Positions 14,614 through 17,288 of a stretch of 64,000 nucleotides of DNA are shown here, piece by piece. A model generated the notes under the pieces. It ran no database searches, was not told the DNA's origin, and saw only the letters and a program-made list of their open reading frames with translations. The stretch is taken from positions 65,149 to 129,148 of the forward strand of contig CAKSFT010000006.1 in NCBI GenBank assembly GCA_934454145.1. Direction: 5' to 3'. How positions within the stretch are numbered: position 1 is the stretch's first letter; every line of letters starts with the position of its first letter. The position numbers and the translations under genes were made by a program. This DNA comes from an uncultured Clostridia bacterium (GTDB lineage Bacteria; Bacillota; Clostridia; UBA1381).

Positions 14614-15111
14614 TTATTTTATACAACATTCACGGCTTTTTTCAAAAGCAATCCTCTCTGTGCCGTCGTCCGGCATATAAATCTTTCCGCAATACTTAAA
14701 GCCATGTTTTTTTATAAGCCTCTGCATCGGGACATTGTCAGCATGCGTATCAATCCTTATGTGCGGATACATACCAAAACAATAGTCAAGGCAAAATCCC
14801 CCTGTGCCTTTTTTTACAGAAGCAATGCGGTGCACAACTCCGTATTCACTGTGGTCCCCCCAGCCCCCTTCATAAATGTGCTTATACACACTGTCCCTGC
14901 CGACTTTAAAATAAAATACGCCGACAATCTTATCTTCATCAAGGCAAACATAGCTCGCTCCGTCTGCAATGTCGCCCAAAACCATTTCTTCCGGCGGATA
15001 TACAGTGCCCCACTGCGACGGATTCCCATGTTCTGCCATGAACCGCTGTGCCGCACGGTAAATCTCCATCACTCTCTCAAAATCTTTTTTTGCTGTTTTG
15101 CGTATTTCCAT
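14614..15111 (-). CDS. GNAT family N-acetyltransferase
   Basis: 165 aa. The size and the ...IVGVFYF...RIASVKKGTGG...N..MQRLIKKHGF pattern fit the GNAT fold. Confidence 0.75.
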   Translation of the reverse strand: MEIRKTAKKDFERVMEIYRAAQRFMAEHGNPSQWGTVYPPEEMVLGDIADGASYVCLDEDKIVGVFYFKVGRDSVYKHIYEGGWGDHSEYGVVHRIASVKKGTGGFCLDYCFGMYPHIRIDTHADNVPMQRLIKKHGFKYCGKIYMPDDGTERIAFEKSRECCIK

Positions 15112-15144
15112 CTCTCGTCCTCTCCCAAAATTTTATAACTATAT

Positions 15145-15360
15145 GGGTAATTGTAAAACTAACGTTTTTCAATTAAATTTCTTGGGTAGAAATAAAAAGT
15201 TCCATCTGATTTTAACTTTACGACAGGCCGAAACTTTTTATTTCAGCCAAAAATGACGCACATGCCGTCATTTTTGATTGCCAATCAGGGGGGTTGGCAC
15301 CCCCGATACTCCCGCAAAGATGCGGTAGGTAATTGTAAAATTTACATTTTACAATTACCT
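15145..15360. mobile_element. MITE-like non-coding element, family P copy A (216 nt)
   Basis: The two ends are inverted palindromes: GTAATTGTAAAAC... and ...AGGTAATTGTAAAAT-ttac-ATTTTACAATTACCT. At least 4 internal stem-loops. Flanked by the identical 15-mer ATTTTATAACTATAT at 15130-15144 and 15361-15375. Confidence 0.7.
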
Positions 15361-15459
15361 ATTTTATAACTATATTCTAACATATGATACCGCAAATTTC
15401 AAGATTATCTTTGCCGTGCCGAAAAAACATGGCCAAATATATTTTTTTCAAAAAAATAC

Positions 15460-15488
15460 TTGACATTTCGACTTTTTTCTGTTACAAT
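15460..15488 (+). promoter_or_regulatory. Sigma-70-type promoter for ylxM-ffh: TTGACA, 17 nt spacer, TACAAT
   Basis: TTGACA at 15460-15465, 17-nt spacer, TACAAT at 15483-15488. Confidence 0.65.
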
Positions 15489-15540: not shown

Positions 15541-15873
15541 ATGAGCAAAGATTTGTCAGTAAATATGCTTATGGATTTTTATGCCGAGCTTCTCACCGAC
15601 AAACAACAAGAGGCGCTTGGACTCTACTATGACGATGATTTTTCGCTTGCGGAAATCGCCCAGCACATGGACATATCACGCCAGGGTGTGCGCGACTTTA
15701 TAAAGCGCGGCGAAAAACAGCTTTTTGAATTTGAAGAATGTCTTGGTCTGGCAAAGCGTTTTGATTGTATCACAAAAGAAGTTCTCAAAATGGAAAAACT
15801 CATCAAAGCACTCCCCAAAAAGGACAATGAAAAGCTTTCGGAACAGCTTGAAAACATAAAAAAATATCTATAA
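15541..15873 (+). CDS. ylxM: YlxM/p13-like putative DNA-binding protein (UPF0122)
   Basis: LLTDKQQEALGLYYDDDFSLAEIAQHMDISRQGVRDFIKR is the sigma-70 region-4-like HTH of YlxM. The gene sits directly upstream of ffh, as is usual. Start at the ATG at 15541 (GGAGAG SD). Confidence 0.85.
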   Translation: MSKDLSVNMLMDFYAELLTDKQQEALGLYYDDDFSLAEIAQHMDISRQGVRDFIKRGEKQLFEFEECLGLAKRFDCITKEVLKMEKLIKALPKKDNEKLSEQLENIKKYL

Positions 15874-15874
15874 T

Positions 15875-15907
15875 AGGTAAGGTAAAACGTAAATTTTACA
15901 ACTACCT
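15875..15907. repeat. Solo, partly decayed family P palindrome in the ylxM-ffh spacer
   Basis: AGGTAAGGTAAAAC-gtaa-ATTTTACAACTACCT. Flanked by AAATATCTATAA at 15862-15873 and 15909-15920. Confidence 0.65.
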
Positions 15908-15938
15908 GAAATATCTATAAATTAAGGAGGGTGAGCAT

Positions 15939-17288
15939 ATGGCATTTGAAAACCTGGGCGACAAACTGCAAGGCGTTTTCAAGCGTCTGCGCGGCAAGGG
16001 AAAACTCACCGAAAAAGACATCAAGGATGCCATGCGCGAGGTCAAGCTTGCGCTGCTTGAGGCGGACGTAAACTTCAAAGTTGTAAAAAACTTTGTTTCT
16101 TCTGTATCGGAAAAAGCTTTGGGACAGCAGATACTCGAATCACTCACCCCATCGCAGCAACTTATAAAAATTGTGCGTGACGAGCTTATAGAGCTTATGG
16201 GCAGCGAAAATGAGCAGTTATCCTATGCCAAAAATCCGCCGACAGTATACATGATGTGCGGTCTGCAAGGCGCCGGGAAAACGACGGCTTCGGGGAAGCT
16301 TGCCCTTTCGCTGAGGAAGGCTTTCGGCAAGCGTCCGCTTATGGCAGCATGCGACGTACAGCGCCCCGCCGCCATAAAGCAATTGCAGGTTTTGGGCGCA
16401 CAGATTGATGTGCCCGTCTTTTCAATCGAAGGCGAAAAAGACCCAGTCAAAATTGCAAAAGAGGCAATTGCGCACGCAAAAAAGCATGGCAATGACCCGG
16501 TTATCATAGATACCGCCGGGCGTTTGCATATAGATGAAGTCCTGATGGAAGAACTCCGGAAAATCAAAGAGGAAACCAACCCGACCGAGATACTCCTTGT
16601 TGTCGATGCGATGACGGGACAGGACGCCGTAAACGTTGCGGAGCACTTTAATTCTCAGCTTGACATCACAGGCGTCATTCTCTCAAAACTTGACGGCGAC
16701 ACAAGAGGCGGCGCTGCAATTTCGGTCAAGGCAATAACGGGAAAACCGATTAAGTTTTCTTCGGTCGGCGAAAAGCTTTCCGACTGGGAGGTTTTTCACC
16801 CGGAACGAATGGCAAGCCGAATCCTCGGCATGGGCGACGTGATGACTCTCATCGACAAAGCGCAGGAGGCTTTTGACGAAAAGGAGGCGGCGGCGCTTGA
16901 GAACAAAATCAAAAAGCAGTCGTTTGACCTGGAAGATTTTCTTGCACAATTGCAGCAAATCAAAAAAATGGGGCCTCTGTCACAGCTTATGCGCATGATT
17001 CCGGGCATTGACAAAAAGGCATTGGATTCCATCGACATTGAGGACGGAGAAAACCGCATGAAACGCATAGAGGCCATCATACGTTCCATGACGCCCGAAG
17101 AACGGCAAAAGCCGCAGATTATCGGAGCAAACAGAAAAATACGTATAGCCAAAGGGAGCGGCACGAAGGTACAGGACGTCAACGCACTCCTGAAACAGTT
17201 TGACCAAATGAAACAGATGATGAAACAGTTCACAAATCCGCGCCAGCAAAAAATGCTTAAGCGCATGCAGAAACTGAGCGGAAAATAA
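15939..17288 (+). CDS. ffh: Signal recognition particle protein Ffh
   Basis: 449 aa. GLQGAGKTT, DTAGR and a Met-rich M-domain at the C-terminus. Confidence 0.95.
   Translation: MAFENLGDKLQGVFKRLRGKGKLTEKDIKDAMREVKLALLEADVNFKVVKNFVSSVSEKALGQQILESLTPSQQLIKIVRDELIELMGSENEQLSYAKNPPTVYMMCGLQGAGKTTASGKLALSLRKAFGKRPLMAACDVQRPAAIKQLQVLGAQIDVPVFSIEGEKDPVKIAKEAIAHAKKHGNDPVIIDTAGRLHIDEVLMEELRKIKEETNPTEILLVVDAMTGQDAVNVAEHFNSQLDITGVILSKLDGDTRGGAAISVKAITGKPIKFSSVGEKLSDWEVFHPERMASRILGMGDVMTLIDKAQEAFDEKEAAALENKIKKQSFDLEDFLAQLQQIKKMGPLSQLMRMIPGIDKKALDSIDIEDGENRMKRIEAIIRSMTPEERQKPQIIGANRKIRIAKGSGTKVQDVNALLKQFDQMKQMMKQFTNPRQQKMLKRMQKLSGK

Follow-up and report, generated by a model that had tools for sequence, protein, structure and literature searches.

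A probable MITE copy between ylxM and ffh, and its family at Shine-Dalgarno motifs, in an uncultured Clostridia bacterium

The ylxM–ffh junction and its inserted palindrome

We analysed a 64,000-nucleotide stretch of DNA, here called the window, from the genome of an uncultured Clostridia bacterium (G000). In it the ylxM and ffh reading frames follow one another on the plus strand and are both intact. A promoter-like TTGACA-17-TACAAT lies upstream of ylxM at 15460–15488, and a terminator scan found none between the two genes. The spacer between them holds an imperfect palindrome of 33 nt, preceded by a T and followed by a G, and this whole unit is flanked by two copies of the 12-mer AAATATCTATAA, at 15862–15873 and 15909–15920. 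The features of the junction are as follows.

15541..15873, plus strand: ylxM (UPF0122, 110 aa), from the ORF list, with a Pfam PF04297 match on the identical protein
15862..15873, unstranded: left copy of the 12-bp target-site duplication AAATATCTATAA, single copy in relatives
15874..15908: inserted element, 35 nt in the window strain, made of T, a 14-nt arm, GTAA, a 15-nt arm and G
15874: T preceding the left arm
15875..15888, unstranded: left arm AGGTAAGGTAAAAC, 14 nt, with a 1-nt deletion and a T>G change against the consensus AGGTAATTGTAAAAY
15889..15892: GTAA loop between the arms
15893..15907, unstranded: right arm ATTTTACAACTACCT, 1 mismatch to the consensus ATTTTACAATTACCT (minus-strand match)
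15908: G closing the inserted element
15909..15920, unstranded: right copy of the duplication AAATATCTATAA
15921..15931, plus strand: 5-nt gap ATTAA, then the ffh Shine-Dalgarno motif (SD) GGAGGG (15926–15931), the proposed anchor for target choice
15939..17288, plus strand: ffh (SRP54, 449 aa), ATG at 15939, from the ORF list and Pfam SRP54 families

The left AAATATCTATAA copy consists of the final three ylxM codons and the TAA stop. An earlier note on this DNA had described a 12-bp duplication around the palindrome that takes in the ylxM stop, and we found it at both positions; the note's placement of the palindrome at 15875–15907 and its partial decay also hold, with the small correction that the left arm is 14 nt long, one T having been lost. 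The insert of other strains is 36 nt, T-AGGTAATGGTAAAAC-GTAA-ATTTTAC(C/A)ATTACCT-A, and it is relative to their AGGTAATGGTAAAAC that the window arm lacks this T.

Relatives provide the uninterrupted junction. Two genomes of the same genus (G001 and G002) read ...AAAAGAATATCTTTAA once, with the SD immediately after it and then the ATG, and a third (G003) reads ...GAATACTTATAA once, followed by the SD. The single 12-mer that the note had predicted for the ancestral junction can thus be read directly in all three, and relatives that lack the palindrome and still carry both AAATATCTATAA copies, which would have spoken against an insertion, were not seen. The distance from the ylxM stop to the ffh start is mostly 11–26 nt in 29 relatives of the taxonomic family versus 65 nt here; removing the 47 inserted nucleotides from the 65-nt spacer leaves ATTAAGGAGGGTGAGCAT, 18 nt. 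As these sequences show, the ancestral ylxM–ffh arrangement was a tight stop-codon/SD junction with one AAATATCTATAA.

The insert landed 5 bases before the ffh ribosome-binding site, with the ylxM stop codon inside the 12 duplicated bases, and therefore neither ylxM nor ffh was damaged. The left copy of the duplication preserves the 3' end and stop of ylxM, and the right copy preserves the native sequence before the ffh SD. As the end of ylxM is just 5 nt from the ffh GGAG, the staggered cuts came to lie within its last codons. The same stop-codon-side event is found at C9:5260, after a MiaB-like gene.

We considered whether the 12-bp repeat could have arisen by chance or by slippage in AT-rich DNA, with no relation to the palindrome. 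The region is AT-rich, and the window has eight other 12-mer repeats within 100 nt, where a first-order Markov model gives 0.48 perfect 12-mers repeated within 20–100 nt per window (maximum 3 in 100 runs). Most of these eight are spaced by multiples of 3 and do not bracket a family palindrome, and one that we read directly has no palindrome. The ylxM–ffh repeat, in contrast, lies precisely at the two edges of a family member, which has the T...R termini and the 5-nt distance to GGAG typical of the family, and relatives have the 12-mer once. Of 5000 AT-rich control sites with a gap of 34 nt, only 0.14% reach a repeat score that the ylxM–ffh site exceeds. The probability of such an origin is, in our judgement, negligible.

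Family members and their position at Shine-Dalgarno motifs

The palindrome has many relatives in the same genome. The arm AGGTAATTGTAAAAT occurs 561 times with at most 3 mismatches in the 2.68 Mb of G000, and in the window the 15-mer arm at this tolerance is found 13 times versus 3.05 expected. Strict 15-4-15 palindromes number 110, and looser criteria give 190. BLAST with the 216-bp copy at 15145–15360 returned 51 end-to-end copies with 69–100% identity (mostly 86–93%), as well as truncated and internally deleted copies. There are also about 65–75 solo palindromes (75 solo candidates), in which two arms make up the whole element. The long form and the ends of the family are described by two further entries.

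15130..15375, unstranded: reference full-length copy, 216 bp at 15145–15360, with the 15-bp duplication ATTTTATAACTATAT on either side
Family end motif pair: TAGGTAATTGTAAAAY ... RTTTTACAATTACCTA

Each end of the full element is itself a palindrome, AGGTAATTGTAAAAC-taac-GTTTTYCAATTAAAW on the left and GGCTAATTGTAAAAT-ttac-ATTTTACAATTACCT on the right, and arms of 15–16 bp, T-AGGTAATTGTAAAAY, form terminal inverted repeats at both ends of full copies. Of 52 clean copies, 41 have T immediately before AGG and 39 have A immediately after CCT, and therefore the element proper is T-AGG...CCT-A. It is small and non-coding, 35–36 bp as a solo and about 215 bp in full, with no ORF and no Rfam family.

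Flanking direct repeats are a property of the family. A repeat score of at least 8 was reached by 35/51 full copies and 17/75 solos, versus the same 0.14% of the AT-rich control sites. The sequence of the flanking repeat is different at every family locus, and it is therefore target DNA and not part of the element. This genome-wide survey revealed a strong enrichment of duplications of 10–16 bp with a mode of 12–13 bp, and the reference copy has 15 bp, in agreement with the earlier note's suggestion of unusually long duplications of 12–15 bp. All structural features of a bacterial MITE are present: small non-coding elements, terminal inverted repeats, target duplications with empty sites, and many dispersed copies.

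These observations lead us to conclude, with a probability of about 85%, that the ylxM–ffh palindrome is one copy of a MITE, a non-autonomous transposon with inverted repeats, and that this copy is fixed and decays slowly. Read as such, it offers a clean before-and-after view of how a transposon landed at a stop-codon/SD junction in an essential operon. The length of the duplication means that the end of the upstream gene and the translation-initiation context of the downstream gene are both rebuilt, which explains how such elements can sit within operons and get fixed.

The family is also distinguished by where its copies lie. An SD-like motif was found at most 40 nt away from 47/51 full copies and 55/75 solos versus 18% of controls. 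Forty copies have a clean repeat and GGAG on one side. GGAG lies 5 nt beyond the repeat's gene-side edge in 21 of them, 4 nt in 11 and 6 nt in 5, and duplications of 10, 11, 12, 13, 14, 15 and 16 bp occur in 4, 7, 10, 9, 3, 5 and 2 copies, respectively. Either end of the long element may face the gene (23 versus 17). The family sets the gene-side edge of its duplication 4–6 nt, mostly 5, upstream of GGAG and extends it by a variable 10–16 bp further upstream, in either orientation. With its 12-bp duplication and 5-nt gap to GGAG, the ylxM–ffh copy is typical.

This geometry suggests how targets may be chosen. A transposase supplied in trans would use the SD motif, read in duplex DNA, as an anchor on one side; one transposon end would be joined at a fixed distance from it and the other about one helical turn off, with some slack, and gap repair afterwards would produce the duplication. 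Against this mechanism, one DDE transpososome would be expected to produce a narrower spread than 10–16 bp. The SD-proximal pattern may be due in part to selection, which does not readily account for single-nucleotide precision. SD-anchored targeting with a long and variable duplication is unusual, and no description of SD-anchored insertion was found in the open-access literature on bacterial IS elements or MITEs. The single-nucleotide anchoring together with the loose 10–16 bp stagger points to a target-selection mechanism of a kind that the literature searched does not describe for these elements.

Age of the insertion and origin of the solo palindromes

Ten conspecific metagenome contigs encode an identical YlxM, and the insert is present in 10/10; it is therefore old and fixed. 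Four of the ten read AGGTAATGGTAAAAC-GTAA-ATTTTACCATTACCT-A, where a T>G and an A>C change pair with each other, and two are intermediate, with G opposite A. The remaining four are of the window type, AGGTAAG-GTAAAAC ... G, and one of these has ACAATTACCT in its right arm in place of ACAACTACCT. Judged from these sequences, the ancestral insert was a standard 36-bp family member. Variation affects 5/36 columns of the stub, and both 12-mers and the SD region are invariant across the ten contigs; ffh has 38 segregating sites in 1350 nt. Stub variation is about that of unconstrained sites, provided that most ffh sites are synonymous, and the stub now evolves about neutrally. For the same reason we rejected a hypermutable hairpin. 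At window positions 15875–15907 the paired arm change (TAATTG>TAATGG with CAATTA>CCATTA) sets L034, L035, L037 and L038 apart from L036 and L040, and two strains have an intermediate form. Both hairpin-templated correction and selection for pairing could account for the change.

Such pairing bears on another possibility, namely that selection keeps the palindrome for a function in cis, as a translational hairpin or as the operator of a dimeric regulator, and that it is not a mobile insertion. At many genes, family members keep a constant position with respect to the SD and start codon, their 15-bp arms have perfect dyad symmetry, and the compensatory pair (T>G with A>C) retains pairing in 4/10 strains. 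Site-specific flanking duplications and empty sites in relatives nevertheless indicate insertion. The ylxM–ffh copy has lost pairing, its RNA fold (−9.2 kcal/mol, z = −0.15) being no better than that of shuffled sequence, and an Rfam scan of the palindrome gave no match above threshold. The 5/36 variable columns approximate the density of unconstrained sites, and what is invariant is the 12-bp repeats and the SD region. We regard conservation as a cis-element as very unlikely for this copy, and some loci may have undergone secondary co-option. In uncultured gut Clostridia, stubs of this kind upstream of genes can pass for regulatory hairpins or operators.

Two other solos and two full copies were likewise fixed in every strain found, and among the sites tested no insertion was polymorphic for presence or absence between strains; the family looks inactive in the G000 species today. 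On a 2-kb contig of 2x coverage (L041:833–1134), the left flank of the G000 C5:111282 copy is linked with the flank that the 15145–15360 copy has on its ylxM side; the contig may be a chimera assembled through the repeat, or it may record a real rearrangement between the two copies.

A second species of the genus carries the family as well. The 2.62 Mb of G002 analysed, contigs C1–C20, contain 34 full copies with the same kind of repeats adjoining SDs, and 34 solos. Most G000 insertion sites are empty in G002 and few sites are common to both; of the 12 mappable G002 solos, 7 lie at sites that are empty in G000. As few sites are shared and most are specific to one species, the family must have been active before the divergence of the two species as well as after it. 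G011, of another genus, likewise has the long element in abundance, and in most other relatives this element is rare or absent. Perfect solos were located by a contig scan at only two sites, each within the G002 MAG.

Single SDs have been hit repeatedly, as seen in tandem copies in G000 and in full copies of opposite orientation at one orthologous site. The latter pair (G000 C12:30529–30742 and G002 C10:71550–71760) shares its SD-proximal site and its flanking repeat; either the target was hit twice independently, or the element inverted in situ between its terminal repeats. Two further stretches (G000 C2:57640–57850 versus G002 C1:72391–72466, and G000 C2:129400–129800 versus G002 C19:23616–23872) include a decayed solo and a full copy and are ~95–99% identical, where typical genes are about 75–80% identical between the species. 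This suggests recent interspecies exchange or unusual conservation.

How solos such as the ylxM–ffh stub arise can be approached through their state of preservation. Intact duplications flank 17/75 solos versus 35/51 full copies (odds ratio 7.5, Fisher p = 4e-7), and solos are therefore older on average. Their centres fall into an R type (T-ttac-A, 14 solos) and L types (C-taac-G and variants, 17 solos), with most others one mutation away; these classes match the right and left palindromes of the long elements in similar proportions, and both are expected from crossovers at either arm pair. Internal deletions have occurred independently: three "two-palindrome" minis have differing deletion junctions, several copies lack positions of about 50–106 or 50–125, and in one strain (L036:1095–1360 versus window 15105–15400) 29 nt of the right terminal palindrome (ATTGTAAAATTTACATTTTACAATTACCT) are gone from the long copy upstream of ylxM. 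The fewer intact duplications in solos, the loops that mirror both end-palindromes and the independent internal deletions make us favour collapse of a full element as the probable origin. An element of ~215 bp would have landed first and later collapsed to the 36-bp stub, presumably by slippage or recombination between the 11-bp direct repeats TAATTGTAAAA present in both terminal palindromes. Full and solo alleles were not found at one and the same site in different strains, the strain-level sites tested being all monomorphic. The lone cross-species pair of a solo and a full copy at the same SD (G000 C1:473875 and G002 C6:89931) is not assignable to one event, since two hits on one SD are possible.

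The earlier note had instead proposed that the palindrome alone can be the mobile unit. The 34–36 bp palindrome, two terminal repeats back to back, would then have been inserted on its own with a 12-bp duplication. Many solos do have their own 10–15 bp duplications with the SD geometry of full copies; solos outnumber full copies, and most G000 solos are absent from G002. Some stand in tandem with full copies on triplicated targets, such as C7:103762 beside C7:103810, which represent separate insertion events at one site. Each of these observations is predicted by the collapse of full copies as well, and a solo that keeps its duplication is also what a collapsed 215-bp element would leave. Moreover, the solos are significantly more decayed, which is unexpected if one enzyme moved both forms at the same time, and their loops mirror both ends of the long element and not one lineage. 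To our knowledge, two ends only 4 bp apart cannot be synapsed by a DDE transposase by bending duplex DNA. An apparent two-palindrome composite at C9:98951–99282 was rejected, since another element had there made a 34-bp duplication of a solo. The note's proposal is not supported in the form given, the indirect evidence leaning to collapse, and we consider independent mobility of solos possible but doubtful. A stronger version, that the 36-bp palindrome is itself transposable (the smallest known) and is moved by an enzyme that reads the SD in DNA as a one-sided anchor, placing the ends 5 bp upstream of GGAG and 10–16 bp further, appears unlikely to us.

The element at C9:98951–99282 belongs to another MITE-like family, unrelated to the first, about 266 bp long and ending in TCAGACTGTCGAAAAAG...CGACACGCTGA, which has three more copies in G000 outside the window (C4:253243–253500, C1:162345–162619 and C7:185440–185696). 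On either side of every copy stands the same complete hairpin of 22–34 bp, duplicated in direct orientation, which is a terminator-like stem in three cases and, at C9, a 34-bp solo palindrome of the TAGG...CCTA family, which this second family duplicated as its own target. The pattern suggests hairpin targeting with very long duplications.

Search for a transposase and comparison with known systems

We searched for an autonomous partner of the TAGG...CCTA family. No arm pair encloses a transposase gene in G000 or in contigs C1–C20 of G002, both being metagenome-type assemblies, from which multi-copy IS are often missing. Arm pairs 260–8000 bp apart with a flanking repeat enclose only housekeeping genes or another repeat in the two genomes. 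No partial copy lies beside a transposase gene, and contig ends carry no arms. Orphan arms in G000 revealed no autonomous partner either, two perfect half-sites (C2:149209 and C2:151282) lying in a restriction-modification island without a transposase. There, at L001:2895–6822 (G000 C2:146894–150821), a cytosine-methyltransferase gene and two large neighbouring ORFs resemble such an island, and a lone perfect half-arm TTTTACAATTACCT stands at L001:7283, just before the SD of the next gene.

Individual transposase types gave the same result. G000 has no PF01609 transposase, and 30 PF01609 loci in relatives are without the family's terminal repeat. It has no IS256-type transposase, its ISL3 is only a truncated remnant without family arms, and its Y1 enzyme is an ordinary IS200-like TnpA (C8:33827–34183) not flanked by family hairpins. 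Cas1 (PF01867) is absent from G000, G002 and G011. The rve domain occurs in one G000 gene, IS3-like, beside a tRNA and without family arms. This transposase gene (438 aa) adjoins the tRNA gene at the start of its contig (L042:1–1546, G000 C2:1–1546), and after the tRNA there is a different hairpin, AGGTAATTCGAAC-tatt-GTTGTTCCAATTACC. No partner was found, and the mechanism proposed above is read from its footprints.

Among known bacterial MITEs, Correia duplicates TA. Chunjie duplicates 9 bp and IMU 5 bp (PMC3184786). Our family resembles bacterial MITEs (Correia/NEMIS, RUP, Nezha, Chunjie; PMC3184786) in being small, non-coding, multi-copy and hairpin-rich, with terminal inverted repeats, target duplications, and empty versus filled sites. 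It differs in its variable duplications of 10–16 bp, in that each end is itself a perfect 15-4-15 palindrome, and in its insertion 4–6 nt from an SD GGAG.

Long duplications invite comparison with the IS4 family; MITE-like derivatives of its member IS231 occur in Firmicutes. The IS4 subgroup makes duplications of 10–13 bp and the IS231 subgroup duplications of 10–12 bp, which vary within one element (PMC2266710), and both are similar to our family in this length of about one helical turn; the upper range of 14–16 bp seen here exceeds theirs. Their ends are CAT... or -AATR... (Table 1 of PMC2266710). We rejected derivation from this family given the ends TAGGTAAT of ours and the PF01609 results.

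[quoted passage not shown] The IS1202 family includes a subgroup with 16–28 bp duplications and a second transposase-binding site near each end; ISAjo2 and IS1202 have TGT...ACA ends and a TnsB-like DDE transposase, and the site-specific group makes 3–5 bp duplications and has a single insertion orientation (PMC10132070). Membership was rejected here too: our family ends in TAGG...CCTA, the sole rve match is IS3-like, and insertions occur in both orientations with longer duplications than those of the site-specific group.

Hairpin-forming ends and short solo palindromes in intergenic DNA are also found in IS200/IS605 PATEs and REP/RAYT systems. Those systems lack target duplications, and we rejected such an origin given the duplications of our family and a Y1 TnpA locus that is not flanked by family arms. 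A casposon-derived MITE, moved by a Cas1-type integrase with a 14–15 bp duplication, was rejected on the absence of Cas1 and on the variable length and 12–13 bp mode of the duplications.

Host-mediated deletion between short direct repeats in inverted ends is familiar from the "nearly precise excision" of Tn10 and from solo LTRs, where it leaves a palindromic stub and keeps the original duplication. The collapse that we favour for the stub between ylxM and ffh would, by analogy, resemble these remnants.
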